Below, one piece after another: positions 20,405 to 41,672 of a stretch of DNA of 64,000 nucleotides. The first letter of the stretch is position 1. Each line of letters begins with the position of its first letter. The position numbers and the translations under genes were made by a program. The stretch lies in contig CAVSGP010000004.1 of the NCBI GenBank assembly GCA_963727505.1, positions 896,001-960,000 on the forward strand, read 5' to 3'. A model generated the notes under the pieces. The model ran no database searches. It was not told where the DNA came from and saw only the letters and a list, made by a program, of their open reading frames with translations. The stretch is from an uncultured Trueperaceae bacterium. Its GTDB lineage: Bacteria; Deinococcota; Deinococci; Deinococcales; Trueperaceae.

Positions 20405-22703
20405 CACCGTCCTGGGCAGCCAGCGCGTCCGGATCCGGGTGCAGGGCGTGGTGCAGGGCGTGGGCTTCCGACCCTTCGTCTACCTGCTGGCGCACCGTCA
20501 CGGGCTGGCGGGCTGGGTGTTGAACGACGCTCAGGGCGTGCTGATCGAAGCGATCGGAAGCCCGCAGGCGCTGGCAGCGTTCACCGCAGCCCTTCGAGAT
20601 GAGCCGCCGGGCGCGGCACGGGTGGGCAGCGTCAGGACACTGGAGCGCGAGCCGTTCGACGCACCGGGGCCTCCTTCTTTCTTGATCCGCGAGAGCGCCG
20701 AGGGGGGCGCCGTCACCACCCTGATCTCCCCGGACCTGGCGATCTGCGACGCCTGCCTGGAGGAGCTGTTCGACCCCCGCGACCCGCGCTACGGCTACCC
20801 GTACATCAACTGCACGCACTGCGGCCCGCGCTACTCGATCATCGAGGCCCTCCCGTACGATCGCCCGAAGACCACCATGGCGGCCTGGCCGCTGTGCGAG
20901 CGTTGCGCCGAGGAGTACGCCGATCCGGCGAACCGGCGCTTCCACGCGCAGCCCGTGGCCTGTCCTCGTTGCGGCCCAGACTACCGGCTGCTGGACGCCG
21001 ACGGCACGCCCCTCACCGCACGCGACTCGATCCTCCAGGCCGCGCGGCTGCTGGCCGAGGGTGCCATCGTCGCGCTCAAGGGTATCGGTGGCTACCACCT
21101 CGCGTGCGACGCCCGGAACCCGACGAGCGTTGCGGCGCTCCGCCAGCGCAAGGTCCGCAAGGAGAAGCCGTTCGCACTCATGGCCAGAGATCTCGCCTCG
21201 GCCCGCGAAGCGCTGAGCGTCTCGGCGGCCGAGGCCGCCGCGCTGCTGTCCCCGGCCCGCCCCATCGTGCTGCTCGACCGCAGCGGCGCCGGCCTGCCCG
21301 AGGCGTTGGCGCCCGGCAATGCCGATCTCGGGCTCATGCTCCCCTACGCCCCGCTCCACCATCTGCTGTTCGCGGCTGGCGCGCCGGAGTTGCTGGTCAT
21401 GACCAGCGCCAACCGCGCCTCCGAACCGATCGCCTACCGCGACGAGGAGGCGCTCCGGGTGCTGGCCGGTCTGGCGGACGCCTTCCTCGTCGGGGAGCGA
21501 GGCATCGCGCGGCGCGTGGACGACTCCGTGGCGGCGCTGTTGGACGGCCGGATCACCCTGCTCCGGCGTTCCCGCGGCTTCGCCCCCGAGAGCGTCGTCG
21601 ACGACCCGCGCTTCGCCGGGGATCTCCCCATCCTGGCGCTCGGCGCAGGCCTGAAGAACGCCATCACGCTGGCGGTGGCAGGGCATGCCTTCGTCAGCCA
21701 GCACCTGGGGGATCTCGACCAGGTAGGGGCGTTGCTCGCGTTCGAGGAGACGGTGCACGATCTGTGCGCCATGTACGGCGTCGACCCCGCCCGTGCGCAG
21801 GTGGTGGCCGACCTCCACCCAGACTACGGCTCCAGCCGGCTGGCCGGGGGGCTGGGCGGACCCACGATGCGGGTGCAGCACCACCGCGCCCACGTCGCCT
21901 CGGTGCTGGCCGAACGACGCGCCTGGGAATCGGTGGTGGTGGGGGTCGCCTTCGACGGCGCGGGGCTGGGGGAGGACGGCACCGTGTGGGGTGGCGAGGC
22001 GTTCGCGGGCAGCCTGGCGACCGGCCTCGCGCGCGTGGCTCATCTACGTCCCGCGCCGCTGCCCGGCGGGGACGGCGCAGCAAGGCGGCCCGCTCAGGCC
22101 GCGGTCGGTTTCCTGTGGGGGCAACCCGCTAACGTGGCGTGGCGCGAGCTGCTGCCGAGCGAAACGGTGGCGCTCGCCGGTCGCCTGATCGAAACGGGGG
22201 CGCGCACGCCGCAGACGACCAGCGTGGGACGGCTCTTCGACACGGCAGCCGCGTTGCTTGGTTTCGAGCGAGCGATGACCTTCGAAGGGCAAGCGGCGAT
22301 GTTCCTGGAATCGCTGGCGCGAGGCCTCGGGGCATCGGGCAGCGTCGAGGAGGGCTATCCGCTACCGTTCGACCACGGCGTCTGGGACCATCGGCCGCTG
22401 CTGGCGGCGCTGGTGGCCGACGTGCGCCGGGGGGTGGACACGCCGACCTGCGCACGGCGGTTCCATGCCGGCGTCGCGCAGGGAGTGGCCCGTGGCGCCG
22501 CCGACCTGGCCGAGGAGCACGGCACCCGAACGGTGGTGCTGTCGGGAGGGGTGTGGCAGAACCGCTTGCTGCACGCTTCGGCCGTGGCGGGCTTGCGCGC
22601 GCTCGGGCTCGAGGTGTGGTGGAACCACAAGGTGCCGCCTGGCGACGGCGGCATCTCCCTGGGGCAGGCGGCGTTGGCCGCCGCATCCCGACCGATTTCT
22701 TGA
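20397..22703 (+). CDS. hypF: Carbamoyltransferase HypF
   Basis: GVVQGVGFRPF acylphosphatase domain, two zinc fingers, KGIGGYHLAC, QHHRAH, PPGDGGISLGQ; TTG start inferred. Confidence 0.96.
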   Translation: MTNTVLGSQRVRIRVQGVVQGVGFRPFVYLLAHRHGLAGWVLNDAQGVLIEAIGSPQALAAFTAALRDEPPGAARVGSVRTLEREPFDAPGPPSFLIRESAEGGAVTTLISPDLAICDACLEELFDPRDPRYGYPYINCTHCGPRYSIIEALPYDRPKTTMAAWPLCERCAEEYADPANRRFHAQPVACPRCGPDYRLLDADGTPLTARDSILQAARLLAEGAIVALKGIGGYHLACDARNPTSVAALRQRKVRKEKPFALMARDLASAREALSVSAAEAAALLSPARPIVLLDRSGAGLPEALAPGNADLGLMLPYAPLHHLLFAAGAPELLVMTSANRASEPIAYRDEEALRVLAGLADAFLVGERGIARRVDDSVAALLDGRITLLRRSRGFAPESVVDDPRFAGDLPILALGAGLKNAITLAVAGHAFVSQHLGDLDQVGALLAFEETVHDLCAMYGVDPARAQVVADLHPDYGSSRLAGGLGGPTMRVQHHRAHVASVLAERRAWESVVVGVAFDGAGLGEDGTVWGGEAFAGSLATGLARVAHLRPAPLPGGDGAARRPAQAAVGFLWGQPANVAWRELLPSETVALAGRLIETGARTPQTTSVGRLFDTAAALLGFERAMTFEGQAAMFLESLARGLGASGSVEEGYPLPFDHGVWDHRPLLAALVADVRRGVDTPTCARRFHAGVAQGVARGAADLAEEHGTRTVVLSGGVWQNRLLHASAVAGLRALGLEVWWNHKVPPGDGGISLGQAALAAASRPIS

Positions 22704-22715
22704 AGGAGACGGACC

Positions 22716-22991
22716 ATGTGCCTTGGCATCCCCTATGAGGTCCTGGAAGTGCTCGATCGCGACAGCTGCCACGTGCGAGTGGGGACCGGCGCGCAACCGT
22801 GCTTCACCGGCCTCGTCGACCCGGTGGCGCCAGGCGACTGGGTGCTGGTCCACGCCGGCTTCGCGCTCCGGCGCATCGAGCCCGAGGACGCGCGCGCCAA
22901 CCTGGACTTGATCCGGCGGGCGCTTGCGGCCCCGGAAGCGGCCACCCGCGCAAGCCCGGAGAGCGACGCACCGCGGCAGGACGAACCGTGA
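22716..22991 (+). CDS. hypC: Hydrogenase assembly chaperone HypC
   Basis: MCLGIP N-terminus; GDWVLVHAGFAL. Confidence 0.95.
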   Translation: MCLGIPYEVLEVLDRDSCHVRVGTGAQPCFTGLVDPVAPGDWVLVHAGFALRRIEPEDARANLDLIRRALAAPEAATRASPESDAPRQDEP

Positions 22992-24223
22992 CCGTTCCGC
23001 GTGGAGCGGGTTCCGCGCCTGCCAGTGGAGGGGCCGAATTCCGTCCCGGCGACTACCGCGATGCCGCCTGGGTCCACGCCCTGGCTCGCCGCATCGCCGA
23101 CGTCGCGGCCGAGCTCGACCGGCCGGTCAAGCTGATGCACATCTGCGGCACCCACGAGCACGAGATCGGCCGCTACGGCCTGCGCGACCTGCTCCCGGAC
23201 TCGGTCGAGGTACTGGCCGGTCCAGGCTGCCCGGTGTGCGTGTGCGACAGTGCCTGGATCGATCTGGCCATCGCCCTGGCCGCGATCGACGACGTCATCG
23301 TCACCTCCTTCGGCGACATGCTGGCCGTTCCCGGAACCATCCCCCTGCGCGGGGAGGCCAAAGGCGACGTACGCATGAGCCTGCTCGACGCTCGCGCCCG
23401 CGGTGGCGACGTCCGTGCGGTCACCAGTGTCTTCGAAGCTGCCCGGCTGGCTGCCGAACACCAGGAGCGGCAGGTCGTGTTCTTCTCGGTCGGTTTCGAG
23501 ACCACCGTCGTCGCGACGGCCGCACTGCTGCGCCGGGGCGCCCCACCCAACTTCAGCATCGTGGAGGCCAACTATTTCACCCCGCCCGCCACCCACCTGC
23601 TGCCGACCCTGCCCGGGTTCGACGTCCAAGGCTTCCTCCTCCCGGGACACGCCAGCGCGATCACCGGCACCGGCGTCTACCGCCACCTGCCCGAGCAAGG
23701 GCTGGCGTGCGCGGTCGCCGGCTTCGAGCCGGTCGATGTCCTGGCGGCCGTCCTGGAGCTGCTGGAGCAGCTCGCGCGGGGCCGCCCGCGGCTCGCCAAC
23801 AGCTACCAGAGAGTGGTGGCGCCCGAGGGGAACCCGCGGGCGCTGGCAGAGCTCGATCAGGTCTTCGAGCCGACCACGATGCGCTGGCGCGGCGTCGCCG
23901 ACATCCCAGCGTCCGGTTACCGGCTTCGCCCCGCCTACCGGCAGGCCAGCGCGCAGCTGCGCTTCCCCGCTGCCGCTGCCGTGACGGGGAACGAGCGCGC
24001 CTCCGAGCACCCTGCGGGTTGCCGCTGCGCCGACGTCACCCTGGGGCTGGCCCGCCCCGACGCTTGCGCCCTCTTCGGGCGCCGCTGCTCGCCCGACAAT
24101 CCGTACGGACCCTGCATGGTCAGCCATGAGGGCACCTGCCGCGCCTGGCACCTCTACGGCACCGCGCGCGGCCGCCTGCAGGTCGAGACCGCCGGAGGGA
24201 GCGCCGCCCGTGGGCCGCTATGA
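22988..24223 (+). CDS. hypD: Hydrogenase maturation protein HypD
   Basis: MHICGTHE, GPGCPVC, GFETT, PGH, GPCMVSHEGTC. Confidence 0.95.
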   Translation: MTVPRGAGSAPASGGAEFRPGDYRDAAWVHALARRIADVAAELDRPVKLMHICGTHEHEIGRYGLRDLLPDSVEVLAGPGCPVCVCDSAWIDLAIALAAIDDVIVTSFGDMLAVPGTIPLRGEAKGDVRMSLLDARARGGDVRAVTSVFEAARLAAEHQERQVVFFSVGFETTVVATAALLRRGAPPNFSIVEANYFTPPATHLLPTLPGFDVQGFLLPGHASAITGTGVYRHLPEQGLACAVAGFEPVDVLAAVLELLEQLARGRPRLANSYQRVVAPEGNPRALAELDQVFEPTTMRWRGVADIPASGYRLRPAYRQASAQLRFPAAAAVTGNERASEHPAGCRCADVTLGLARPDACALFGRRCSPDNPYGPCMVSHEGTCRAWHLYGTARGRLQVETAGGSAARGPL

Positions 24224-25223
24224 GTCGATCCGGCTGGCGCACGGAAGTGGCGGTCGCCTCACCGCCGAACTGATCCGCGAGGTCTTCGCCGCCACCTTCG
24301 ACAACGTACCGCTGGCCGCACTCACCGACGCGGCGGTGCTCGACAACCCCGGCGGACGGCTAGCGTTCGCCAGCGACTCGCACGCCGTGAAGCCCTGGCG
24401 CTTCCCTGGCGGGGACATCGGCCGCCTGGCCGTCGCGGGCACCGTCAACGATCTGGCCGTGATGGCGGCCGTTCCGCGCTATCTGTCGGCCGCTTTCATC
24501 CTCGAGGAGGGCTTCCTGGTCGACGATCTCGTGAGCGTGGTGCGTTCCATGAAGCGGACGGCGGATGAGGCCGGGGTCGAAGTGGTGACGGGCGACACCA
24601 AGGTGGTGGAGCGGGGCAAGGGGGACGGCATCTTCATCAACACCACCGGGATCGGCTTCCTCCCACCGGGGCGGGACGTGGGCCCACACCGCCTCACGGC
24701 CGGCGACGCACTGCTCGTGAACGGCACCCTCGGCGACCACGGGCTGGCGGTGCTGGCGGCGCGTGAGGAGCTCGCGTTGGGGACGACGCTCGAGAGCGAC
24801 GTCGCGCCGCTCGGCGGCCTGATCGCAGCGCTGCTGGCGGCGGCCCCAGACGTGCACTTCATGCGTGACCCCACGCGCGGCGGGCTGGCGGCGGTGGCCA
24901 ACGAGATGGTCGCCTCCCGTCCCTTCGGCGTCCGCGTGTGGGACGCGAGAGTGCCCCTGAACCACGACGTGGCCGAGCTGAGCGAGATGCTGGGGATCGA
25001 TCCGCTGCTGGCCGCCAACGAGGGCAAGGTCGTCGTCGCCCTGCCCGCGGACCAGGCAGACGCGGCCCTCGCCGCCCTGCGCGCTCACCCCCTGGGCCGG
25101 AACGCCGCCCTCATCGGCGACCTGGTGCTTCAGCCCGCCGGCATGGCGCTGGTCGAGACGGCCTACGGCAGCCGCAGGGTCCTCGAGATGCCGGTCGAAG
25201 AGCAGCTTCCGAGGATCTGTTGA
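24210..25223 (+). CDS. hypE: Carbamoyl dehydratase HypE
   Basis: AHGSGG, FPGGDIG, GDTKVV, RDPTRGG, C-terminal LPRIC. Confidence 0.96.
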   Translation: MGRYESIRLAHGSGGRLTAELIREVFAATFDNVPLAALTDAAVLDNPGGRLAFASDSHAVKPWRFPGGDIGRLAVAGTVNDLAVMAAVPRYLSAAFILEEGFLVDDLVSVVRSMKRTADEAGVEVVTGDTKVVERGKGDGIFINTTGIGFLPPGRDVGPHRLTAGDALLVNGTLGDHGLAVLAAREELALGTTLESDVAPLGGLIAALLAAAPDVHFMRDPTRGGLAAVANEMVASRPFGVRVWDARVPLNHDVAELSEMLGIDPLLAANEGKVVVALPADQADAALAALRAHPLGRNAALIGDLVLQPAGMALVETAYGSRRVLEMPVEEQLPRIC

Positions 25224-25347
25224 CCGCCCGACGGCGTCCGAACGCGGCTTTCACCCCGTGCAGGCGGGCGTTCCCTGCTAGAGTGAATAGGATGAAGCGA
25301 GCCGGTCGCGCTTCGCGACCAGGCCGTCGGTGAACCGGAGGTAGCGC

Positions 25348-26199
25348 ATGCGTATTCTGCACCCCACCGACTTCTCGTCCACGGCCGAGAAGGCCCTTGC
25401 CTTGGCTCGTGACCTTCGGCAGCGCCTCGACGGTGAGCTCCACCTGGTGCACGTGCAACAGCGCTTCGAATCGGCGCGCTCCCATCCCTACCTGCAACCG
25501 CAACTCGACAACCTCAACCCCGAGCTGACGCGCCGGGTCGAGCAGGACCGCAAGGACGAGGTCGATCGCCTTCGCAACTCGTTGGAGCACCTCGCCTCTC
25601 CCGACGCCACCGCGGAGTTGCGCTGGGGCGATCCGGTGCGGGAGCTGCTCGATGCCGAGAAGAACGTCGATCTCGTCGTCATGGGAGCCCACGGCGCCAA
25701 CCGCCTCGACAACTACTTCCTGGGTGGCATCGCCGGACGGCTGGTGCGGCGTTCCACGGGCCCCATCATCACCGTCCGTGACGAGGTCCCCTCCCTACAG
25801 GTCCGGCGCGTCCTGGTGGCCACCGACTTCGGCGACGCCTCCCGAGCCGCCTGGGAGTTCTGCCGGCGTCTGGGCCGCAGCGGCATCAAGCTCGTCATCG
25901 CCCACGTGCTCGACGATGCCCGGGTGCGCGACAAACCCGACTACATGAACACCGTGACCGACGCCCTCGATGCGCTCGCGGGCGATGTCGCCGAGCGGCA
26001 TCTCGTGCTCGACGGCAACCCGGCTCGCAAGCTCCCCGCGGCTGCAGATGAGGTCGGTGCCGATCTCATCGCCATCGGCCTACGGCGCCATTCGAGCGCC
26101 ATCGGGCTGCTCCTGGGCAGCCGCGCCGACATGCTCATCCGCAGCAGCGCGGTGCCGGTGCTGAGCGTGCCCCACGAGCACGGTAACGGACGCCCCTAG
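25348..26199 (+). CDS. Tandem-domain universal stress protein
   Basis: MRILHPTDFS and second domain RRVLVATDF; GGAGG RBS. Confidence 0.92.
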   Translation: MRILHPTDFSSTAEKALALARDLRQRLDGELHLVHVQQRFESARSHPYLQPQLDNLNPELTRRVEQDRKDEVDRLRNSLEHLASPDATAELRWGDPVRELLDAEKNVDLVVMGAHGANRLDNYFLGGIAGRLVRRSTGPIITVRDEVPSLQVRRVLVATDFGDASRAAWEFCRRLGRSGIKLVIAHVLDDARVRDKPDYMNTVTDALDALAGDVAERHLVLDGNPARKLPAAADEVGADLIAIGLRRHSSAIGLLLGSRADMLIRSSAVPVLSVPHEHGNGRP

Positions 26200-28363: not shown

Positions 28364-28459
28364 GAGGACCTCCTTCCGAGCGACACGCCCACCTTACACC
28401 CCGGCCCGTGCGCGCTTCCGGGGCCCGGGGACCGGCTCCGGGTCGCGTGCGGTGCCTCG

Positions 28460-28468
28460 TGGTACACT
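28460..28468 (+). promoter_or_regulatory. Extended -10 candidate (TGGTACACT) for hppA
   Basis: TGnTAnnnT ~95 bp upstream of ATG 28564. Confidence 0.45.
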
Positions 28469-28563
28469 TTCGCTTGCGTTTCGAACCGGAGAAGGATCCG
28501 TGTCACGGCACGTTGAATCGTGGCCCGATCCCTGCGGAACCACGACTTGACCCTGGAGGCAAG

Positions 28564-30669
<2,106 letters not shown>

Positions 30670-30925
30670 CGCAGCGGCCCGTACGGGCCTCGACGCACGT
30701 TCTTCCCGCGGGGTGGCGCACGGCGCCGCCCCGCGGCTCGCTTGCGCGTCAACGCGCGACGCCACCCTCGCGCCGTTCGGGCCCGTGTTGTCGAAGGGAA
30801 GGTCGTTCTTTGAGGGGGCGCCCGTCGCCTCGTGCGGCCCAACTTTCCAATTATAGCGCAAGCCCGGTCCGCGCACTAGGACCCGGGACCCCGAGTGGTC
30901 TGCCGGACCGGACTATCATCGCATT

Positions 30926-31235
30926 GGAAGGAGGTCTAAACCATAGAGGCCAAAGACCACTTCTCGAAGAGCAACCCTCGGCCCACTAGAGGCTCGACCG
31001 AGTAACTCCTCAAGCGGAGGAGCACCGACAGAGCAGGAATAGGCGATCGAGGGTTGCTCTCATGTGAACTCCGCTGCAGCCTGCGGCCCCACCCAGGATG
31101 GGTGCGGGCCTTTCGCATGCCGCAAGGCCCCACCCGAGCCCGTCCGGTACGGCTAGACCGGAACCTTCGAAACGCCCGTGCTGAATCGCGATGGGCAGAT
31201 CGCGAACCCACGAACAAAGCCCCCTTGGCTGACGC
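30926..31235 (+). ncRNA. Candidate structured ncRNA, Ms1-RNA-like (3' end at either ~31113 or ~31235)
   Basis: TATCAT -10 at 30914-30919; perfect 13-bp stem 30968-30980/31048-31060; blocks GAGGCCAAAGACC, GAGCACCGACAGAGCA, GGAATAGGC resemble Ms1 as I recall it; no credible ORF. Confidence 0.5.
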
Positions 31236-31480
31236 CGGCCTCGTGGACAGCGCCTTTGGGGGCTTGATGCGAGGAGCCGGCGCCGTTGCGACGGCGGCTC
31301 CTCGATCCGATGTCCTTGTACCACTTCCGGGGCAACGCTCGATCGCCGTTCGTTGCGCGATCACCCTTCGTCGGCGCGGACCGAACGGCGCCATGGACAT
31401 TCGTCCTTGCCGGGTCGCATCGCCCCCTGTTACAACTCCGATGTGAGGGTCCGACATCCCCGGTCGCGACCCCTCGGAAC

Positions 31481-31489
31481 TGCTACGCT
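31481..31489 (+). promoter_or_regulatory. Extended -10 candidate (TGCTACGCT) for the ferredoxin gene
   Basis: TGnTAnnnT ~75 bp upstream of ATG 31564. Confidence 0.4.
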
Positions 31490-31563
31490 GGAGTCAGGCA
31501 CACCGTCTGGCACACCGCGCGAAAGGCGGCGCGCGCTTCGGTGCGGCCCGGAGAGGAAGCTCG

Positions 31564-31800
31564 ATGGCATACGTGATCGCTGAGCCCTGCATTGGCGTCA
31601 AGGACGCGTCCTGCGTGGACGTCTGCCCTGTGGAATGCATCTACGAAGCCGAAGACCAGTTCTACATCCATCCAGAGGAGTGCATCGACTGCGGTGCCTG
31701 CGTCCCCGCCTGCCCGGTCGACGCGATCTTCCCCGAGATCGACGTGCCCGATGAGTGGGCGTCGTTCACCGAGAAGAACGCCAAGCTCTCCGGCCTGTAA
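31564..31800 (+). CDS. 7Fe ([3Fe-4S]+[4Fe-4S]) ferredoxin
   Basis: EPCIGVKDASCVDVCPVECI and CIDCGACVPACP; Thermus-type. Confidence 0.95.
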   Translation: MAYVIAEPCIGVKDASCVDVCPVECIYEAEDQFYIHPEECIDCGACVPACPVDAIFPEIDVPDEWASFTEKNAKLSGL

Positions 31801-32680: not shown

Positions 32681-33841
32681 ATGATCGGCACGGATCGTAT
32701 CCGCGCACTCCAGACGGAAGTCGCAACCCACCCGGCCCCTGTCCTGTCGCTCTATCTGAACGTCAACCCGGCGCGGCCGGAGAACGCCCGCAAGGCTTAC
32801 GCCCTCAGGGCACGCGCTGCCATGGAGCACCTCGGCCTCGACAAGAACACCACCCGCCAGATCGTCGCCAAGCTCCGCCAGGACCACGGCATGCCGGACG
32901 CGCGGACGCTGGTGGTCTTCGCCGGTGACGAACCGCGCACGTTCTTCGAGAGCTACGCCATCCGGCCCGAGATCGCACTCGTCGAGGCCGGCGACGGCGT
33001 GGTGGCGAGGTGGGGCGAGCCGTACGTGGCGCCTCTGCTGTTGACGGTGCAGGAACACCAACGCTACCTGGTCGTGCTGCTGGCCACCGACCACGTCCGC
33101 CTGTTCGAGCTCTACCTCGATGAGGTGGCCGAGCTCGACGCCTTGGTGCAACCGCTCGACGACAGCGGCTGGCGCCCGATGCGCGAACACGCCACCGGCG
33201 CTCCCGGCGTGCCCGCCCGCGGCGGATCGGGGAAGGACCTCTACGACAAGCGGGTGGCCGACTGGCGTCGACGCTTCCACCTCGAGGTGGGTCGGCACCT
33301 GGATCGCATCCTCGCGTCCTTAGGAGGCGACACACGACTCATCCTGATGGGGCAAGGGCAGGAGGTGAACGCCCTCGAGTCGGTGCTGCCTTCGGCGTTC
33401 CAGGCGCTGGTGGTGGAACGCCTCCCCGCCCCCGCCAACGGCGAGGCGCCGGCCGCCGAATTCGAACCGCTGTTCGCGTCGGCCATCCAGCGCATCGAGG
33501 ACGCCACGGAAGCCGCTTATCTCGACCGCATCCAGGAGAAGGGGGTCTGGGGTTTCGGTGCGACCCTCGAAGCGATCGGCGATGGGCGCATCCATCTCCT
33601 GGCGGTGCCGTGGCGCATGCACGCGACCGTGTTCACATGTCCGAACGGGGATCGGGTGGCTGCGACGCGTGCGGACGCGCAACGCCTCTGCCCCGGCGAG
33701 ACGTTGCAGGAGACACCGCTCGCCGACGTCCTCCCAACCCTCATCGCCCGCCACGGCATGCGATTCGCCGTCATGCACGGCGCCAACGAGGTCCGTCTCG
33801 CAGAGGACTTCGACGGGCTGGCGGGGCTCACCCGCTGGTAG
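32681..33841 (+). CDS. Bacterial aeRF1-like protein (baeRF/VLRF1-type; Balon-like hibernation factor candidate)
   Basis: PVLSLYLNVNP N-terminus, WGEPYVAPL, RLILMG middle domain, C-terminal GLAGLTRW; no GGQ. Confidence 0.7.
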   Translation: MIGTDRIRALQTEVATHPAPVLSLYLNVNPARPENARKAYALRARAAMEHLGLDKNTTRQIVAKLRQDHGMPDARTLVVFAGDEPRTFFESYAIRPEIALVEAGDGVVARWGEPYVAPLLLTVQEHQRYLVVLLATDHVRLFELYLDEVAELDALVQPLDDSGWRPMREHATGAPGVPARGGSGKDLYDKRVADWRRRFHLEVGRHLDRILASLGGDTRLILMGQGQEVNALESVLPSAFQALVVERLPAPANGEAPAAEFEPLFASAIQRIEDATEAAYLDRIQEKGVWGFGATLEAIGDGRIHLLAVPWRMHATVFTCPNGDRVAATRADAQRLCPGETLQETPLADVLPTLIARHGMRFAVMHGANEVRLAEDFDGLAGLTRW

Positions 33842-33845
33842 GGCC

Positions 33846-34196
33846 ATGGCCGACACGGGTCACGCGCAGCAGGTCGTTCGCCGGCTTCTCGATGCGGAGA
33901 AGGGCGCCACGGCGCGCCTCGCTGAGGCCGAGGAGCGCGCCCGGCAACAGCTCGCAAGCGCCCACGAGGAAGCCAACCGTACGCGTGCGGATGCTCAGGA
34001 ACGCGCTGCGAGAGAAGGGCATGCCACGCTCGCGTCGGCACGCAGCGAAGCGGAGGCGGAGGCGGCCGCTCTCATCGCCACGGAGCGGGAACGGTGGCAG
34101 CACATCACGGACGCGGCCCAGAGCCGCATCGGTGCCGCCGCCAACGACGTGGTCGCCTGGGTATGCGCCACCGACGATGCGGAGGAGCTCCCATGA
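33846..34196 (+). CDS. V/A-type ATPase peripheral stalk subunit G/H
   Basis: A/E/R-rich coiled coil (LLDAEK..A...LAEA) at the head of the operon. Confidence 0.7.
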   Translation: MADTGHAQQVVRRLLDAEKGATARLAEAEERARQQLASAHEEANRTRADAQERAAREGHATLASARSEAEAEAAALIATERERWQHITDAAQSRIGAAANDVVAWVCATDDAEELP

Positions 34197-35224
34197 TGGG
34201 CGTCTTCCGCCATGCGGCCGCGTATGCGCAGGTACGCGCACGCCTGCCCGGCCTGCTCTCCTCGTCGGAGTGGCGGTCGCTGCTGGAGGAGCAGGGGGTT
34301 GAAGGGATCGCCCGGCGGCTGGAGGGCGGCGCGTACGGCAGCGAGCTCCCCAGCCAACCCGCCGCCCTCGAGCTTCGACTCAAGGCGACGCTAGCGGAGG
34401 AAACGGGTGCCGTGGCGACGTTCCACTGGGGCGCCACCAGGGCGCTGCTCGACGCGTACGCCAGGCGCTTCGAGCTGGCCAACCTCAAGACGGTGTTGCG
34501 CGCCCGCCACCACGGCGTCCCCTGGGCGCGGAGCGTGGTCGTGATGACCCCCCTGAAGCGCTCTTCGCTCCCGTGGCGTCCGCTGCTCGAGGCCCCGTCC
34601 ATGGAGGCGGTCGCGCGGCTGCTGGCAGGAACGCCGTTCGCCCGACCGCTGCTCACCGTTCTCGAACAGCACGGGGATGCCGCTCCCTTCCGCTTCGAGG
34701 TCGCCCTCGACCTCGCCTACTTCCAGGAGCTCGTGCGGCGCATCGAGCGCTTGACAGGCCGCGACGGCGAACGCGCCCGCACCTTCCTCGGCGATTGGAT
34801 CGAGGTCGAGAACCTGGAGTGGGCCTTCCGCTACCGGCGGCTGGCCGGGCTCACGCCCGAGGAGACGGTCAACTACACCTTGCACAGGGCCTTCGGAGCG
34901 GGGCTCGACGCGGTGAGGCGGGTGGTGATGGGGAGCACCGTCGCCGAGGAGGCGGCCCGGCTCGGGTACGTGATCGACGGCGACGCGCCGGAGGACGAGG
35001 CGCTCGCGGCGTTGGAGCGGACCGCGGGACAGCAGCGCGCCGACGCGGCTCTCCACCTGTTCCTCGGGGCGCCCTTCGATGTGGGCGCTCCCCTGGCGCT
35101 GCTCACCCTGCGCGAGACCGAGGTGCTCGACCTGATCACGCTGATCGAGGGCGTCGCGGCGGGCCTGAGCAAGGGCGCGCTGGCCACCCGCTTCCTGGGA
35201 CCGTTGCGCCATGGAGAGGCCTGA
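34193..35224 (+). CDS. ntpC: V/A-type ATPase subunit C (d)
   Basis: YAQVRA..LL, FELANLKTVLR, EVALDLAYF, E..NL.WAFR. Confidence 0.85.
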   Translation: MMGVFRHAAAYAQVRARLPGLLSSSEWRSLLEEQGVEGIARRLEGGAYGSELPSQPAALELRLKATLAEETGAVATFHWGATRALLDAYARRFELANLKTVLRARHHGVPWARSVVVMTPLKRSSLPWRPLLEAPSMEAVARLLAGTPFARPLLTVLEQHGDAAPFRFEVALDLAYFQELVRRIERLTGRDGERARTFLGDWIEVENLEWAFRYRRLAGLTPEETVNYTLHRAFGAGLDAVRRVVMGSTVAEEAARLGYVIDGDAPEDEALAALERTAGQQRADAALHLFLGAPFDVGAPLALLTLRETEVLDLITLIEGVAAGLSKGALATRFLGPLRHGEA

Positions 35225-37130
35225 CCCCGTGCTCGCGCCCGAACGGCTCCAGGAAGTGAGCATCTTCGTGCTCGAGCGCGATGTAGAAGTCAGCGCCAAC
35301 GTCCTGCTCCACTCCGAAACCCTCCACCTCGAGGACGTCGAAACCGAGTCCCTGGAGCCGAAGCGTCACTGGGCCGAGATCGCCGAGCGGGCGCTGGTGT
35401 TGGCGCGCCGCGCCGGACAGGTGCTCGAGCTCCTCGGCATCGAATCGCAGACCCAGGCACCGACCGAACCCGTGCGCCCCAGTGACGAGCTCGAACTGAT
35501 GGAAGCGCAACTGGCCGTGGCGGAGACGCGCGTCCGATCCTGGCGTTCCCGCGCCGACCGGAGCAGACGCGAGTTGGAATCGCTGGCGTTGGCCCGGTCC
35601 CAGCTCGAGTTACTCGAGCCGCTCGACGTCCCCGTCGAGGCGCTGGCTGAGCTCCGGCAGCACTACGTCGTCGTCGGAACCATGCCGGCCGAGAACCTCG
35701 CGCGCGTCGCAGCCGCGCTGTTCACCGTGTCGTTCGTGATCGCTCCGGTGCAGGTGCGCGCCGGGCGCGCTCTGGTGGTGGCGGCCAGCACGCATCAGGA
35801 CGCCGCCATCCTGGACCGGGCATTGCGCAGCGCCTTCTTCGAACCGATCCCACTCCCGGCCGACGCGCGCGGCCATCCGAAGGAGGCGCTGGCGGCGCTC
35901 GAACGGAGCACCGAGCAGGCGCGAGCGCGGCAGACGGAACTCCAGACCGAACGCGCCCGCCTCGCCGCTGCGCTGCGCGAGACCCTCGTTCCGCTCGAGG
36001 CACGCCTGCATGCCGCCGCGGTCGTGGCCGAGGCGATCCGGCGCTTCCCCAGCCGTGGCGAGGTCTACCTGATCGCGGGCTGGGTCCCGGCGCGTAGCGT
36101 CGAGGCTCTCGGCAACAAGCTCCGCGCCGCCGCCACCGCCCCCGTCGTGTTGCAGGCGGCACCGCCTGCCGACACGCGGCAGGGCGTGCCCACACTCCTC
36201 AACACACCGCCCTGGCTACGGCCCTTCCGGATCCTGGTCACCACCTTCGGCCTCTCGGGCTATCGCGAGATCGACCCCACGCTGCCGGCGGCCGCGACCT
36301 TCGTGCTCATGTACGGGATGATGTTCGGAGACATCGGACACGGACTGCTGCTGGCCGCAGCGGGAGCCTTGATGGGCAGGCGCGGCGGGCCGTTGGCGCG
36401 CATCATCACCGTGGCGGGCGTGAGCGGAGCGCTGTTCGGCGTGCTCTACGGGACCGTGCTCGGCGCCCCGCTGTTCGCTCCCCTGTGGCTCCGGCCCATG
36501 GACCGCATCCAGGACCTGCTCCTGGCGTCCCTCGTGGCCGGCGCGCTGGTCCTCAACCTCGGCTTCGCCCTCAACCTGCTCACGCGGGCCCGCACCCACG
36601 ACGTCTTGGGGCTCGTACTGGACAAGAAGGGCATCGTCGGGCTGCTCTTCTACTGGACGCTCGTCGGCGGCACCGTCCTGAGCCTCCTCGGAAGGCTCGA
36701 TGTCCGCATCATGCTCGTGGTGTTGGCCCCGCTGGCGCTGCTGCTGTGGCTCAAGGAGCCGATCGAGGAACGACTCAAGGGACGACCCGTGGGGCCCATC
36801 GGCGACATCGTCGTGACGGGCTTCTTCGAGCTCTTCGAGACGGTGCTCGGTTACGCCAGCAACAGCCTCTCGTTCGTCCGGCTGGGGGCCTTCGCGATCG
36901 CTCACGAGGGGCTCTCCACCATGGTGCTCCGCTACTCCGGCGGGCCCGCGGGCTGGGCCGTGCTGGTGTTGGGAACCGCACTGATCGTCGGCTTCGAGGG
37001 GCTGGTGGTGGGGATCCAGGCCTTGCGCCTGGAGTACTTCGAGTTCTTCGGTCGTTTCTTCAGGGGCGACGGTACCCCCTTCGTCCCACTGACGTTCCAG
37101 GGAGGTCGCGATGCTCGGATGCAAGCCTAG
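35211..37130 (+). CDS. ntpI: V/A-type ATPase subunit I (a)
   Basis: YREIDPT, MFGDIGHG, NSLSFVRLGAFAIAH (essential Arg), QALRLEYFEFFGRFF. Confidence 0.95.
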   Translation: MERPDPVLAPERLQEVSIFVLERDVEVSANVLLHSETLHLEDVETESLEPKRHWAEIAERALVLARRAGQVLELLGIESQTQAPTEPVRPSDELELMEAQLAVAETRVRSWRSRADRSRRELESLALARSQLELLEPLDVPVEALAELRQHYVVVGTMPAENLARVAAALFTVSFVIAPVQVRAGRALVVAASTHQDAAILDRALRSAFFEPIPLPADARGHPKEALAALERSTEQARARQTELQTERARLAAALRETLVPLEARLHAAAVVAEAIRRFPSRGEVYLIAGWVPARSVEALGNKLRAAATAPVVLQAAPPADTRQGVPTLLNTPPWLRPFRILVTTFGLSGYREIDPTLPAAATFVLMYGMMFGDIGHGLLLAAAGALMGRRGGPLARIITVAGVSGALFGVLYGTVLGAPLFAPLWLRPMDRIQDLLLASLVAGALVLNLGFALNLLTRARTHDVLGLVLDKKGIVGLLFYWTLVGGTVLSLLGRLDVRIMLVVLAPLALLLWLKEPIEERLKGRPVGPIGDIVVTGFFELFETVLGYASNSLSFVRLGAFAIAHEGLSTMVLRYSGGPAGWAVLVLGTALIVGFEGLVVGIQALRLEYFEFFGRFFRGDGTPFVPLTFQGGRDARMQA

Positions 37131-37449
37131 GTCCTTCACGCTTCGGATGCTCGTTGCGCTGGCGGTGTGGACATGGGCCGCACTGGCGGCGGCCCAGACA
37201 ACCCCACAGGGTCCTGACCAGGTGGTGCAGGCCGCCACCCAAGGGAATCCCTTCCTGGCCGCCGCCATCGCCACCGGTCTCGCCGCCATCGGAGCGGGCA
37301 TCGCGGTGGGGATCGCGGGGGCTGCAGCCATCGGCGCGATCGCCGAGAAGCCCGAGCTCCTTGGCCGGAGCCTGATCTTCGTCGGTCTGGCCGAAGGGAT
37401 CGTCATCTACGGGCTGATCATCTCCTTCATCATCCTGGGGACGGGTTGA
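37111..37449 (+). CDS. ntpK: V/A-type ATPase proteolipid subunit K (c), single hairpin with signal-like N-terminus
   Basis: GAAAIGAIAEKPE...FVGLAEGIVIYGL (carboxylate Glu; no Gln or Ser/Thr Na+ signature, so probably H+); start may be ATG 37148. Confidence 0.92.
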   Translation: MLGCKPRSFTLRMLVALAVWTWAALAAAQTTPQGPDQVVQAATQGNPFLAAAIATGLAAIGAGIAVGIAGAAAIGAIAEKPELLGRSLIFVGLAEGIVIYGLIISFIILGTG

Positions 37450-37775
37450 GCATCGTGGCCACGGCTCGCGGGCTCTTGGTCATCGGGGGCGCTGATGTCG
37501 TCTTGGGCCTCGGGCTGCTCGGCATCGAGGGCGTCGCCGTATCCGATGCGCCGCAGGCCCGCGCGGCGCTGGAGCAGGCCCTCGCCGATCCCGGCACCGC
37601 GCTGGTGTTGATGGATGAGGCCTGGGTCGAGGGCCTGCGCGACACCCTGGAGGCGGTCGCGCAGGAGTCCGCGCGTCCGCTGGTGGTCGAGATCCCCAGC
37701 GCGACCGGAGCCGACGCGGCGCAGGCGCTCCGCTCGAGGGTCGAGCGCGCGCTCGGCTTCCAGTTGAGGGAGTGA
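37446..37775 (+). CDS. ntpF: V/A-type ATPase subunit F
   Basis: VIGGADVVLGLGLLGIEG...PLVVEIP. Confidence 0.88.
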   Translation: MSIVATARGLLVIGGADVVLGLGLLGIEGVAVSDAPQARAALEQALADPGTALVLMDEAWVEGLRDTLEAVAQESARPLVVEIPSATGADAAQALRSRVERALGFQLRE

Positions 37776-38410
37776 GCCCGGACATGTTGGATGTGCGCGG
37801 AGATCTGGAAGCACTGGTGGCGGAGGCCCATCGGCGGGTGGAACAGCGCGCCCTCGAGCAGGAGGCCAACGCCGAGCGACGCTCCGCAGAGACGCTGAAC
37901 GAAGCGCGCGACGCCGCCGCCGCGATCGTGGAGGACCACCGGCAGCGCACGGAGGCCGAAGCGGCCGAGGTTCGCGTGCGCGTGCTGGCGCTCGGTGAGA
38001 TGCGTGCGAAGCGCGTCGCACTGGAACAACGCGAGGCCCTGCTCGACATCGTCTGGGAACGTGCCAGGGCGCGACTCGAGGCGCTTCCCGACGATCGCCG
38101 ACGATACCTCGCCACGCTCCGAAGACTGGCCGCCCTGGCTGCTCAGAGCCTCGGAGTGGGCGAGGTGGAGCTCGCCTCGGAGGTACGCGGACACGACCTC
38201 CTCACACCAGCGCGGCTCGAGGCGTGGGGCACGGAGGACGGCGTGCGCTATCGCCGCGCGGCCGCTCCGGTGACGATGATGGGCGGTCTGGTGGCGAGCG
38301 CCGACCGGCTCCGGGTCGATGTCAGCTTCGACACGCGCCTCCGGATCGCCCAGGAAGAGCTGCGTGACGGCGCCGCCGCGCTGCTCCTGGAAGGCGATGG
38401 GAAGCCGTGA
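37772..38410 (+). CDS. ntpE: V/A-type ATPase subunit E
   Basis: N-terminal coiled coil; GGLVASADRLRVDVSFDTRL. Confidence 0.85.
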   Translation: MSPDMLDVRGDLEALVAEAHRRVEQRALEQEANAERRSAETLNEARDAAAAIVEDHRQRTEAEAAEVRVRVLALGEMRAKRVALEQREALLDIVWERARARLEALPDDRRRYLATLRRLAALAAQSLGVGEVELASEVRGHDLLTPARLEAWGTEDGVRYRRAAAPVTMMGGLVASADRLRVDVSFDTRLRIAQEELRDGAAALLLEGDGKP

Positions 38411-38426
38411 ACGGAAGGGTGAGGCC

Positions 38427-40235
38427 GTGAGGCAGGTCGGCACCGTGAGCTGGATCAGCGGACCGGTGGTCAAGGCGCGGTTGAGCGCTCCGGTCGGGCT
38501 GCTGGAGCAGGTGTTGGTCGGCGCCCTCGGGCTCACAGGCGAGGTCATCGCGCGAGACCACGATCTCGCGACGGTGCAGGTGTACGAGGAGACGGACGGC
38601 GTGCGGCCCGGTGAGCCTGTGCGGTCCGACGGGCACCCCCTGGAAGTGACTCTGGGGCCGGGCCTGTTGGGCCAGGTCTACGACGGCCTCCAACGCCCCC
38701 TGGAGAGGTTGCTCGAGAGCGGCCCCGGCATCGAGCGGGGGGCCCACGCCGATCCGCTTCCGGACCGGACGTGGCGGTTCGTCGCGCGCGCCGCCGAAGG
38801 CGCCGAGGCCCACCCCGGCTCCCTGGTCGGCACCGTGCAGGAGACGCCCCTGATCGAGCATCGGGTGCTCGTTCCCGCCGGCCTGGAGGGCACGTTCGAG
38901 TGGGTCGCCGACGACGGCGACCTTGCCCGCGACAGCGTGGTGGCCCGGATCCGCAGCGCAGCCGACGGCGAGACGCACGAGCTGACGATGGTGCAGCGCT
39001 GGCCCGTTCGCGTGGCACGCCCGTCGCTGAGGAGGCTCGACTCCGACCGCCCCCTGGTGACGGGGCAACGCGTGCTCGACACCTTCTACCCGGTCGCTCG
39101 CGGCGGTGCGGTGGCGCTCCCCGGGCCGTTCGGAGCCGGCAAGACCATCCTGCAGCACAGCCTGGCGAAGTGGTGCGACGCCGAGGTGATCGTCTACGTG
39201 GGGTGTGGCGAGCGCGGCAACGAGATCGCCCAGGTCCTCAGCGACTTCCCCACCCTGCTCGACCCCGCCTCGGGCCGGCCGCTGTTGGAGCGAACGATCC
39301 TGATCGCCAACACCTCGAACATGCCGGTGGCCGCACGCGAGGCCAGCATCTACACGGGGCTGGCGATGGCGGAGTACTACCGGGACATGGGTTACAGCGT
39401 CGCACTGATGGCCGACTCGACCAGCCGCTGGGCCGAGGCGCTGCGAGAGATCGCGGGGCGTCTGGAGGAGATGCCGGCCGAGGAGGGCTACCCTGCCTAC
39501 CTGCCCAGCCGCTTGGCCGCCTTCTACGAGCGCGCCGGGGTGGTCGAAACGCTCTCGGGCCAGGCCGGGTCGGTCACCATCATCGGAGCGGTCAGCCCCC
39601 CGGGCGGCGACTTCACCGAGCCCGTCACCCAGCATACGCAGCGCTTCACGAGGGCGCTCTGGGCCCTCAGCCGCGAGCTCGCCAGCGCCCGACACTACCC
39701 GGCCATCAGCTGGGAGAGCAGCTACAGCTTCTACGTCGACGAGGTCGCTGCCTGGTGGGAAGCGGAGGGAGGCGAGGGCTGGTCGCAGTTGCGGGGGCGT
39801 GCAGTGTCCATCCTGGAGCAGGACGCTCGCCTGGAGCAGGTCGTGAGGCTCGTCGGGAGCGAGGCGCTGCCCGACCGTCAACGCTGGGTGCTGGAAGCCG
39901 CCCGCTTGCTCAAGGAAGGATTCCTGCGGCAGAACGCCCTGCATCCGATCGACGCCATGTGCCCGCCCAAGAAGCAGGCGAGCCTGCTGGCCCTGTTCGT
40001 GCGGCTCTTCGAACGCGGCCGCGATCTCATCGACGCCGGCGTGCCCCTGGTGAGGGTACGCTCCGCGATCGACGCCGGACGCCTGCTTCGGCTCAAGGAG
40101 ACCGCACCAGGCGACGATCTCTCGCTCATCGAGGCGGCCGAGCGGGAGACCGATGCCGCCTTGGTGGCCCTGCGCGCCACCCCGACCTCGGCGAGTCCTG
40201 CCGAGGCCACGCGACCTGACGGGGACGCGCCATGA
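38427..40235 (+). CDS. ntpA: V/A-type ATPase catalytic subunit A
   Basis: ISGPVV, QVYEET, P-loop GPFGAGKT, GCGERGNE, ANTSNMPVAAREAS. Confidence 0.97.
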   Translation: MRQVGTVSWISGPVVKARLSAPVGLLEQVLVGALGLTGEVIARDHDLATVQVYEETDGVRPGEPVRSDGHPLEVTLGPGLLGQVYDGLQRPLERLLESGPGIERGAHADPLPDRTWRFVARAAEGAEAHPGSLVGTVQETPLIEHRVLVPAGLEGTFEWVADDGDLARDSVVARIRSAADGETHELTMVQRWPVRVARPSLRRLDSDRPLVTGQRVLDTFYPVARGGAVALPGPFGAGKTILQHSLAKWCDAEVIVYVGCGERGNEIAQVLSDFPTLLDPASGRPLLERTILIANTSNMPVAAREASIYTGLAMAEYYRDMGYSVALMADSTSRWAEALREIAGRLEEMPAEEGYPAYLPSRLAAFYERAGVVETLSGQAGSVTIIGAVSPPGGDFTEPVTQHTQRFTRALWALSRELASARHYPAISWESSYSFYVDEVAAWWEAEGGEGWSQLRGRAVSILEQDARLEQVVRLVGSEALPDRQRWVLEAARLLKEGFLRQNALHPIDAMCPPKKQASLLALFVRLFERGRDLIDAGVPLVRVRSAIDAGRLLRLKETAPGDDLSLIEAAERETDAALVALRATPTSASPAEATRPDGDAP

Positions 40236-40268
40236 GATCCCCTCCAGCCGTCAGCACGGATCGAACTG

Positions 40269-41672
40269 GTGGGCGCCGACCGTATCGAGGGGCCGCTCCT
40301 CCTGCTCGAGGGGTTCGGGCGGGCGGCCTACGGCGAAGTGGTCGAGGTCCACGGCGCCGGGCCCGTCCGCCTGGGCGAAGTGCTGGCATCCTCGGAAGAC
40401 TCGGCCGTAATCGAGCTGTGGGGCGACACGGCTGGGATGGCTCCCGAGACGTTGAGCGTGCGCTTCCGAGGCCAGACGCTGCATGCCCCGGTCGCCGAAG
40501 AGATGCTCGGGCGGGTGTTCGACGGGCTCGGTCGACCGCGCGACGGTCTACCCCCTCCGATCGCGGAGCGCCGCGTCGACGTGCATGGGCGACCGATCAA
40601 TCCCGCCGCCCGCGCTTACCCACGGGATCCCATCGAGACCGGAGTGTCGGCGATCGACCTGATGAACACCCTGGTGCGCGGTCAGAAGCTTCCGCTGTTC
40701 TCGGGGTCGGGGCTGCCGCACAACGAGCTGGCGGCTCAGATCGCCCTGCAAGCCCGCATCGCCGGCGAAGGCGAGCGCTTCGCCGTCGTGTTCGTGGCCC
40801 TGGGAAGCTCGCACGACACGGCCGCGTTCTTCCGTGAGCAGTTCGAGGACTCCGGCCTGCTGGCACGCACCGCCCTGTTCCTCAACCTGGCGGACGACGC
40901 GCCGATGGAGCGCATCGTCACGCCCCGCGTGGCACTGTCGCTGGCCGAGCACCTGGCCTTCGAGCACGACTACCACGTCCTAGCACTCCTGACGGACATG
41001 ACCAACTACGCCGAGGCCCTGCGCGAGCTCTCCGCCCGCAAGAACGAGGTCCCCGGTCGCAAGGGCTACCCCGGTTACCTCTACACCGACCTGGCGTCGA
41101 TCTACGAGCGCTGCGGCCGCATCAAGGGCGCGAAGGGATCGCTCACCCAGATCCCCATCCTGACCATGCCGGGAGACGACATCACCCACCCGGTGCCCGA
41201 CCTCACCGGATACATCACGGAGGGCCAGGTGGTGCTCAGCCGGGCGCTCCACCGGGCCGAGGTCTACCCTCCCGTGGATGTGATGCTGTCGCTGTCGCGG
41301 CTGATGAAGGACGGCATCGGCAAGGGCGTCACGCGCGAGGACCACGCCGGACTGGCGGCACAGCTCTACGCGGCCTACGCTCGCGTCCAGGAGGTCCGAA
41401 ATCTGGCGACCGTGATCGGCGACGCGGCGCTCGCCTCGATCGACCGCATGGTCCTGGAGTTCGGAGAGCGTTTCGAGCACGACGTCCTCCGGCAGGGGTC
41501 GAGCGAGATCCGCAGCATCGAGGACAGCCTCGATCGGGGCTGGGCGGCGCTATCGGTGCTGCCCATGGACGAGTTGACACGCGTCGGCGCCGAAGACCTG
41601 CAGAAGCACTACCGTGGCCGGCTTCCGGCCACGGAGGCGGGCTCGCCCCCCGGTTCCGAGGAGCCCCCATGA
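40269..41672 (+). CDS. ntpB: V/A-type ATPase subunit B (start ambiguous)
   Basis: RIEGPL, GQKLPLFSGSGLPHN, TDMTNYAEALRE, HPVPDLTGYITEGQ. Confidence 0.95.
   Translation: MGADRIEGPLLLLEGFGRAAYGEVVEVHGAGPVRLGEVLASSEDSAVIELWGDTAGMAPETLSVRFRGQTLHAPVAEEMLGRVFDGLGRPRDGLPPPIAERRVDVHGRPINPAARAYPRDPIETGVSAIDLMNTLVRGQKLPLFSGSGLPHNELAAQIALQARIAGEGERFAVVFVALGSSHDTAAFFREQFEDSGLLARTALFLNLADDAPMERIVTPRVALSLAEHLAFEHDYHVLALLTDMTNYAEALRELSARKNEVPGRKGYPGYLYTDLASIYERCGRIKGAKGSLTQIPILTMPGDDITHPVPDLTGYITEGQVVLSRALHRAEVYPPVDVMLSLSRLMKDGIGKGVTREDHAGLAAQLYAAYARVQEVRNLATVIGDAALASIDRMVLEFGERFEHDVLRQGSSEIRSIEDSLDRGWAALSVLPMDELTRVGAEDLQKHYRGRLPATEAGSPPGSEEPP

Follow-up and report, generated by a model that had tools for sequence, protein, structure and literature searches.

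The question raised by the locus described here is what occupies a gap of 894 nucleotides (nt) between two protein-coding genes in an uncultured member of the Trueperaceae (Deinococcota), a family known almost solely from metagenome-assembled genomes. The window, that is the whole stretch of 64,000 nt that was analysed (assembly GCA_963727505.1, contig CAVSGP010000004.1, positions 896,001 to 960,000), carries the H+-pyrophosphatase gene hppA at 28408-30669 (H_PPase, E = 2.3e-270) and a gene for a 78-amino-acid 4Fe-4S ferredoxin at 31564-31800, and the gap between them extends from 30670 to 31563. An earlier note, made from the letters alone, had seen no credible open reading frame (ORF) there and had proposed a ~300-nt RNA of the Ms1 family, reaching from a TATCAT -10 element to 31270, in an apparently non-actinobacterial genome. 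The five longest ORFs of the gap (59-173 amino acids) matched no Pfam family, the host does belong to the Trueperaceae within the Deinococcota and not to the Actinobacteria, and a structured non-coding RNA on the plus strand behind the TATCAT is supported by covariation and by the position of the -10 element among relatives. The length and the family assignment that had been proposed did not hold.

The reading preferred here, held with moderate confidence, is that of a new free-standing small RNA gene of the Trueperaceae whose structured product acts in trans and binds a protein or the ribosome. The existence of the RNA, its strand, its structure and its distribution were established by comparison among genomes of the family; action in trans through a protein or the small ribosomal subunit is the most likely mode, with partner and effect being predictions.

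A structured small RNA family of the Trueperaceae

When 40 related genomes were first searched with the DNA sequence, a conserved core (approximately 30910-31115) came up in 9/9 genomes of the same genus and in five further genera of the host's family, and in none of the 16 genomes from other families of the order. From 15 copies an alignment was made, a consensus structure was predicted with RNAalifold, and a covariance model (R1) was built. A larger set of 69 copies from 67 loci, chosen for being model matches, was aligned to the model and used for building a broader covariance model (R2). At E<=0.001, R1 matched 109 of the 128 Trueperaceae genomes (~85%), nearly always as a full-length and single-copy match; the matches cover 29 of the 36 genera and 65 of the 79 genomes of good quality, and these family tallies include one unpublished genome (G118), on which no claim depends and which is without a match. 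Searches with R2 matched 32 of 36 family genomes, and a lax search of five unmatched family genomes yielded one weak match (E = 1.5e-4).

Outside the family, none of the 114 genomes from the other four families of the order was matched by R1 or R2. A sample of 40 genomes from the phylum gave only three weak matches (19-21 bits) with R2 at E<=1; one of them lies inside a 367-amino-acid ORF and another reads, in our view, as the end of a coding frame. A 22-letter degenerate pattern taken from the most conserved stretch of the RNA (30983-31006) was found in 33 places in 185,579 species genomes, 32 of which were confirmed by R2 in records titled Trueperaceae, Truepera, Deinococcaceae, Deinococcales, Deinococci or Deinococcota bacterium or 'uncultured bacterium'. 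The 33rd match, in a Gemmatimonadota-titled record, was unconfirmed by the covariance model and was taken as chance. One record titled 'uncultured Trueperaceae bacterium' was 93.9% identical to the host across 1632 nt that comprise hppA, the spacer and the RNA. As far as the searches reached, a restriction of this RNA family to the Trueperaceae appears well supported.

In the window the family-wide conserved core lies at 30925-31066 on the plus strand (covariance model match of 168.3 bits), and its length ranges from 129 to 198 nt across the 69 copies. The RNAalifold consensus of the 15 copies comprises 40 pairs, which form a 5' hairpin (P1), a long rod (P2) and a short tail. P1 (30926-30964) has the word AAGGAGGU, similar to a Shine-Dalgarno (SD) sequence, in its 5' strand (30928-30935) and an AUA in its loop (30943-30945). 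P2 (30968-31060) starts with the perfect 13-bp stem that the earlier note had pointed out (30968-30980 / 31048-31060), which was found to covary across the 69 copies, and continues with a CC/GG step, a 7 x 8 internal loop, an invariant GCUC/GAGC mini-helix, a 3 x 3 loop, a short CG.GU/AC.CG helix and an apical hairpin. This hairpin, CUCCUC-AAGCG-GAGGAG at 31006-31022 and likewise present as first described, consists of covarying pairs and is of variable length, with 12-76 nt between its conserved flanks in the 69 copies.

Homologues with covariation, which the earlier note had suggested looking for, were thus available in number, and were confined to the Trueperaceae as searched. Among the 69 copies, standard pairs fill 90.5% of the cells, double-sided compensatory changes are seen in 35 of the 40 pairs, and the observed covariation values were reached in 0/500 shuffles. 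Both helices of P1 are changed on both sides at every pair (10/10), as is the basal stem of P2 (11/11 modelled pairs, with 95.3% of cells paired). Although the fitting of the alignment to the model inflates these figures somewhat, the signal is real, because standard pairs fall to 38-49% of cells when the partners are slid by 1-3 columns. The fold predicted from the host's sequence alone agrees with the comparative structure (z = -3.4). With such strong covariation and its presence in ~85% of the family's genomes, the new RNA family is defined well enough to be added to annotation pipelines.

The conserved sequence of the rod lies mainly in its internal loops and on both of their strands, as CCACUAGAGGCUCGACCGAGUA (5' strand) and CCGACnGAGC...AAAGG (3' strand), with CACUAGAGGCUC and GACNGAGC as loop sequences. 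The most conserved stretch, CCACUAGAGGCUCGACCGAGUAAC (30983-31006), makes up the 5' side of the internal loops together with the GCUC mini-helix, and on this side the columns T120, G126, G127, C128 and T129 are invariant in the 69 copies. On the 3' loop side, CACCGACAGAGCAGGAAUAGGCGAU (31023-31047), invariance is seen at the columns C248, A254 and C256 and near-invariance at A250, G255 and A275.

Transcription from the plus strand with a start near 30926, directed by the RNA's own -10 element, can be regarded as partly shown from the sequence comparisons. The TATCAT is present at 30914-30919 as the earlier note had claimed, and its sequence and position are kept among the copies: 65/68 copies have a TAnnnT hexamer (TATCAT, TAGCAT, TACCAT, TATAGT and others) that precedes model position 1 by 3-13 nt (mostly 5-6 nt), whereas the control tests gave 2/68 on the opposite strand and five copies at a place 30 nt further upstream. 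Further upstream, an inverted-repeat-like motif, CTAGGAC-N5-GACCCC (30876-30892, plus strand), is centred ~41 nt before the RNA start. In 26/68 copies the centre of the related form yAGGAC-N5-GnCCCT lies 39.5-45.5 nt (mostly 41-42 nt) upstream of model position 1, compared with 12/1360 random windows; the regular expression was written after the sequences had been viewed, and the deviating copy of the host's own genome is not matched by it. The position of ~41 nt would suit a class II activator site, and the motif may possibly function as one.

The strand is indicated by the pairs of the structure, in which 180 cells are G-U/U-G and 84 are A-C/C-A. It is also indicated by the tails: in 28/68 copies the rod looks like an intrinsic terminator because a T-rich tail stands directly behind it on the plus strand. 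In the host's genus the tail behind the rod is degenerate (CUCUCAUGUG), and beyond a variable linker comes another hairpin, at 31085-31113, that ends in a short U tract; the earlier note had reported a hairpin plus TTT at this place. This second hairpin is retained with altered sequence in same-genus and neighbouring genomes, with T-rich sequence behind it, and probably marks where the RNA ends in this genus. With the ends taken from the -10 element and this terminator, the predicted RNA extends over 30926-31116 (~191 nt, plus strand); the support for promoter and terminator is comparative in kind. An extent of ~300 nt, to 31270, had been proposed together with a closing pairing between GGCCAA (30948-30953) and TTGGCT (31225-31230). 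Both words are present, but their pairing is not conserved among relatives, and the comparative 3' end was placed near 31116 rather than at 31270 because the TTGGCT partner belongs to a separate conserved element (31208-31324).

With regard to expression, Logan contigs of four metatranscriptome runs were placed on the locus and mostly represented conserved hppA or ferredoxin sequences of other organisms. In two salt-marsh metatranscriptome runs, from two studies, short contigs of 90-99% likeness cover 30949-31067 and, within the gap, this part only, which is a weak hint that RNAs of the new family are made. Each of six RNA runs contained only small shares of the 1.5-kb query, and the uncovered rest of the gap in the RNA runs proves nothing.

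Comparison with Ms1, 6S, raiA and Y RNAs

A cmscan search of the whole window against Rfam (4227 families) gave no match at gathering thresholds, and over 30670-31570 none of the three families that the earlier note had named for this check (Ms1, 6S and raiA) was matched at E<=10. The matches that did appear in the gap at E<=10 were at chance level and were discarded (mir-4854, sul1 with 19 bits at a cut-off of 36.2, mir-9279 and two Pyrobaculum small RNAs). In the host's whole 3.26-Mb genome (97.4% complete) the Ms1 model (RF02566, gathering threshold 162 bits) found nothing at E<=0.001 or at E<=10, and the 6S model (RF00013, gathering threshold 46.4 bits) and the raiA model (RF03072) found nothing at E<=1. 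A disguised housekeeping RNA was also considered and rejected, the signal recognition particle RNA being located elsewhere in the genome. That the RNA belongs to a previously undescribed family, with a match to none of the 4227 Rfam families, is well supported, and no regulatory RNA was found reported for the Trueperaceae in open-access papers and bioRxiv, subscription journals lying outside the scope of that search. Sub-threshold matches of the Ms1 model were seen in Deinococcus radiodurans (E<=0.001) and also in Caulobacter, Thermus and Haloferax (E<=10), which is probably an effect of G+C-rich composition.

Ms1 is quoted as having a length of ~300 nt (PMC4191392) and described as binding the core of RNA polymerase and as forming a long hairpin with a bubble in its centre (PMC9130861, PMC4191392), and its loci are described as defined by synteny with genes for a HAD-IB hydrolase/phosphoserine phosphatase and an oxidoreductase (PMC9130861). 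The new RNA resembles it in being non-coding, in having its own promoter, in being largely helical with unpaired loops and in occurring in a lineage without a recognised 6S RNA. It differs in its host, a member of the Deinococcota, and in its length of ~140-190 nt as against the quoted ~300 nt, the sequence past 31116 not being conserved with the core. Its flanking genes encode the H+-pyrophosphatase and the 4Fe-4S ferredoxin instead of the HAD-IB hydrolase and oxidoreductase described for Ms1, and its 5' end forms a covarying hairpin of its own, with no conserved closure between the two ends, although the rod does have internal loops. The list of mycobacterial motifs on which the Ms1 assignment had drawn was not confirmed. 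The motifs GGAATAGGC (also GGAAUAGGC) and GAGGCCAA are absent from the supplement of PMC9130861, which has the Ms1 sequence of Streptomyces coelicolor, and GGAATAGGC, GGAAUAGGC and GAGGCCAAG are absent from the main text of PMC4191392. Judged by the missing model match at E<=10, the shorter length, the other neighbours and the lack of a conserved 5'/3' closure, the new RNA is not a relative of Ms1, and the tempting call of an Ms1 homologue outside Actinobacteria is hereby corrected.

The 6S RNAs are a parallel in dimensions. With ~191 nt the new RNA lies within the range of 150-210 nt quoted for 6S (PMC4191392), it is a rod with internal loops (7 x 8 loop, 4-bp helix, 3 x 3 loop), and within its lineage it is nearly universal and mostly single-copy. 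It differs from 6S in its extra 5' hairpin, in termini that are unpaired with each other, in loops that are smaller and strongly conserved in sequence, and in the variable length of its apical stem. The 6S model was silent in the Thermus and Deinococcus controls, and no 6S RNA of Deinococcus or Deinococcus-Thermus was apparent from the titles or abstracts of open-access papers and bioRxiv preprints. Among the family genomes the 6S model exceeded its cut-off in 1/128. This sole strong match (93.3 bits) lies on contig 44 of a genome that is 89% complete with 3% contamination (G041; locus L139); the genome is also among those without the new RNA, and the contig may be foreign.

The Y RNAs of Deinococcus, whose partner is Rsr/Ro60, share with the new RNA the phylum, the small size, the structured nature and the long stem. 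They differ in that the host has no gene for this partner, TROVE/Ro60 (PF05731) being absent from the 97.4% complete genome and detected in the D. radiodurans control, and in that the new RNA has no Rfam match. The raiA motif RNA, which is known from other phyla, is similarly an orphan structured RNA of ~200 nt, but its model matched neither the host's genome at E<=1 nor the gap at E<=10.

Genomic context, the 5' hairpin and possible functions

For 41 of the 69 copies hppA lies upstream on the same strand, at a distance of 160-660 nt (mostly 160-360 nt), and since the rod with its U tail is terminator-like in 28/68 copies, the RNA could be imagined to act in cis, as a leader or attenuator of the downstream gene or as a 3' element of hppA. 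This explanation is largely refuted and we consider it highly improbable. The RNA has its own -10 element, and for ~20 copies the available upstream sequence covers at least 1400 nt and is free of hppA. The gene hppA itself is present in 117/128 family genomes; it is lacking in one genus (six genomes), four genomes of which contain the RNA, and conversely several genomes have hppA and no RNA. In five such genomes no diverged copy was found behind hppA (best score 11.1 bits, E = 0.17). A functional tie to hppA was ruled out by these tables of presence and absence. The downstream genes differ as well, encoding a universal stress protein (Usp), a LonC-like protease, the ferredoxin, an amidotransferase, an MFS transporter, a GH94 enzyme (on the other strand) or other proteins, and are often on the opposite strand. 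The contexts without hppA are mutually unrelated and on either strand (MFS transporters, urease/Bmp, DeoC/BrkB, transposase, Crp-family regulator and others). Because the neighbours vary in kind and in strand, the RNA is viewed as a free-standing gene and neither as a leader nor as an hppA 3' element. At one locus (L054) the gene just upstream of the RNA is of the Crp family.

The 5' hairpin adds a second feature that bears on function. The near-invariant AAGGAGGU in the 5' strand of P1 is a perfect SD word, and it is followed 5-10 nt later, in the P1 loop, by AUA, AUC or AUU (AUH). A script detected the SD word plus AUH in 65/69 copies, in which the third base of the triplet is never G; of the remaining four copies, one is truncated at its 5' end and three contain these words at positions that the script did not cover. 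The same layout is seen at infC, the E. coli homolog of which uses an unusual AUU start for autoregulation by initiation factor IF3. The infC starts of 30 family loci (L142-L171) and of the host's genome (L141, contig 4) were read from the DNA, not from annotation. In 31/31 genomes GGAGGU is followed by a spacer of 5-9 nt (mostly 6-7 nt) and AUA, AUU or AUC; in 4/31 the triplet is preceded, at a distance of one or two codons, by an in-frame stop, and several genomes have no canonical start behind it. From these readings infC of the Trueperaceae appears to start at AUA, AUU or AUC behind a strong GGAGGU, and P1 looks like an initiation site of this type. In the host's genome both have a spacer of 7 nt and CC directly before the triplet. 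The two differ in that the new RNA has no conserved frame behind the triplet and has its SD word locked in a hairpin, and in that the choice of triplet does not track, one genus having AUU at infC and AUA in the RNA.

A small protein gene behind this start-like site was examined and rejected. There is no canonical start, and the RNA is not a peptide gene because the frame is unkept, the peptides behind the AUH triplets are unrelated among copies, and the codon positions are similarly variable. The distance from the AUH to the conserved UAG, modulo 3, is 0, 2 and 1 in 33, 21 and 11 of 65 copies, and the mean entropies of the first, second and third codon positions are 1.07/1.12/1.29 and 1.02/1.05/1.32 in two groups of copies, with no clear codon periodicity. 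Translation without a conserved product would be a different matter: a weakly initiating AUH mini-ORF, handled as at infC, might, in dependence on the fidelity of initiation (IF3 level), open P1 and the 5' arm of the rod and so switch structure, stability or termination. In favour of this proposal, besides the regular SD-AUH layout and its counterpart at infC, the frame behind the AUH has at most 21 codons in all but four of the 65 copies (from the next downstream AUH three of these four end within 12 codons), and it often ends at the UAG or UAA of the conserved loop, the UAG being in frame in 33/65 copies. Short frames that end at conserved stop-like words are, however, expected by chance in two of the three frames, the first and second codon positions are nearly as variable as the third in a frame that is not kept, and the SD word is sequestered in a covarying helix. 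An IF3-sensitive switch of this kind is therefore ranked fourth among the readings and is seen as quite improbable.

In the account preferred here, that of a trans-acting binder whose anatomy and expression are partly shown, the RNA is transcribed on the plus strand from its own TATCAT, starting near 30926, and folds into the 5' hairpin and the long rod with its nearly invariant internal loops. Many relatives have its end at the U tail that belongs to the rod itself, and in the host's genus it ends at the second terminator hairpin, near 31113. Serving no particular neighbour gene, it would act in trans, with the conserved loop nucleotides of both rod strands as a binding surface and with the 5' hairpin imitating a translation start, a strong SD word with AUA, AUC or AUU 5-10 nt later as at the family's infC. 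More specific versions are conceivable, either a decoy or sensor built on the start look-alike, which might engage the 30S subunit or report the fidelity of initiation (IF3 level) and thereby switch the rod, or a polymerase-binding analogue of 6S and Ms1; to these we attach little confidence. If true, either would give the Deinococcota a global regulator RNA of a new kind. The near-invariant loops and the imitation of an infC-type start in any case provide concrete and testable ideas on a protein or ribosome partner.

Two other trans-acting modes were weighed against this reading. An ordinary regulatory small RNA that pairs with mRNAs, using single-stranded stretches (the P1 loop, the rod loops or the G-rich 5' word) as seeds, is unlikely, and still ranks next after the preferred reading. 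Base pairing is the mode of most bacterial small RNAs, and a promoter of its own, an intrinsic terminator, the absence of a fixed neighbour and the presence of conserved unpaired stretches of 7-9 nt would all agree with it. The conservation in question lies, however, on both strands of internal loops within a long helix and not in an open seed, and such conservation is the usual signature of a surface for protein binding or tertiary contacts rather than of an antisense seed; moreover, no Hfq gene was found in the host's genome at its 97% completeness. A functional analogue, not a homologue, of 6S or Ms1, in which the rod loops would mimic an open promoter and sequester RNA polymerase, is more doubtful, and polymerase binding by the new RNA is accordingly a putative, minority possibility. 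For such an analogue speak the near-universal and mostly single-copy occurrence of the RNA in a family where 6S exceeds its cut-off in a single genome, the lack of a 6S match in the host, and the length within the 6S range; in our own reading, the loop region grows to ~14 x 14 nt when the 4-bp GCUC/GAGC helix is taken to be able to melt. Against it, neither the 6S nor the Ms1 model matches at E<=10, the rod is not closed by the termini, the separate 5' hairpin misfits the 6S plan, and a stem of 12-76 nt beyond the loops suits a promoter mimic poorly. The argument from a missing 6S is itself weak, because the other four families of the order are without the new RNA and, in the controls, without 6S as well, and some complete genomes of the family have neither RNA. 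Ranked by probability, the alternatives to the trans-acting binder follow in the order base-pairing small RNA, 6S/Ms1 analogue, IF3-sensitive switch and cis-acting element.

Several observations weigh against the reading of a plus-strand, trans-acting binder. A consensus scan of the gap called no sigma-70 promoter and no plus-strand terminator, the former because a canonical -35 element is missing and the latter because the tract behind the 31085-31113 hairpin has only three T. As a single sequence the minus strand folds better than the plus strand (-92.2 vs -82.1 kcal/mol; z = -4.4 vs -3.4), and the pair counts come from a 69-copy alignment that, being fitted to a plus-strand model, favours the plus strand. 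The earlier note had named expression only from the minus strand, where the inner rod gains G-U pairs, as a refutation of its proposal; the extra pairs of the minus strand require a U at 31040, where relatives mostly have A, and a minus-strand RNA was rejected, with promoter, tails and relatives all favouring the plus strand. The salt-marsh contigs show neither strand nor ends and do not exclude DNA as their source. Several complete Trueperaceae genomes are without the RNA, which must hence be dispensable. The likeness to the infC start is short (13/17 positions in the host's genome, by our own count), and because the SD-like word is base-paired within the covarying P1, access of the ribosome would need melting. 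The most likely partner, a protein or the small ribosomal subunit, is a prediction.

Neighbouring elements and further copies

The separate conserved element at 31208-31324 contains two strong hairpins and is located just before the ferredoxin gene region. Five same-genus genomes (G002, G005, G006, G007 and G009) have it at a distance of ~4 kb from the RNA core, and the host's genome and its relative G004 are therefore without ~4 kb at this place; in G003 and G008 a short piece of the element is matched close behind the core. In those relatives that were annotated, genes for Usp and a LonC-like protein are located just behind the RNA core.

The surroundings in the window had been described as a dormancy-type gene block, which puts it loosely. 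The neighbours comprise hydrogenase maturation genes, one Usp gene, phosphoglucomutase, hppA, the ferredoxin, a baeRF-family protein and a V/A-type ATPase. The region 20334-26199 contains HypF, HypD and HypE-like hydrogenase maturation genes followed by a gene for a Usp with tandem domains. Between the ferredoxin gene and the ATPase operon (34094-42316) a gene for a bacterial eRF1-like protein is found at 32681-33841 (baeRF family 10, E = 2e-24).

Tandem copies of the RNA stand behind hppA in two genomes (G137 contig 32 and G131 contig 13; L074 and L075), and at least three more genomes have a second, unlinked match. One second, unlinked copy is that of G086 (L052, L053), for which the nearest downstream ORF, ~1.1 kb off, is an rve-type transposase gene.

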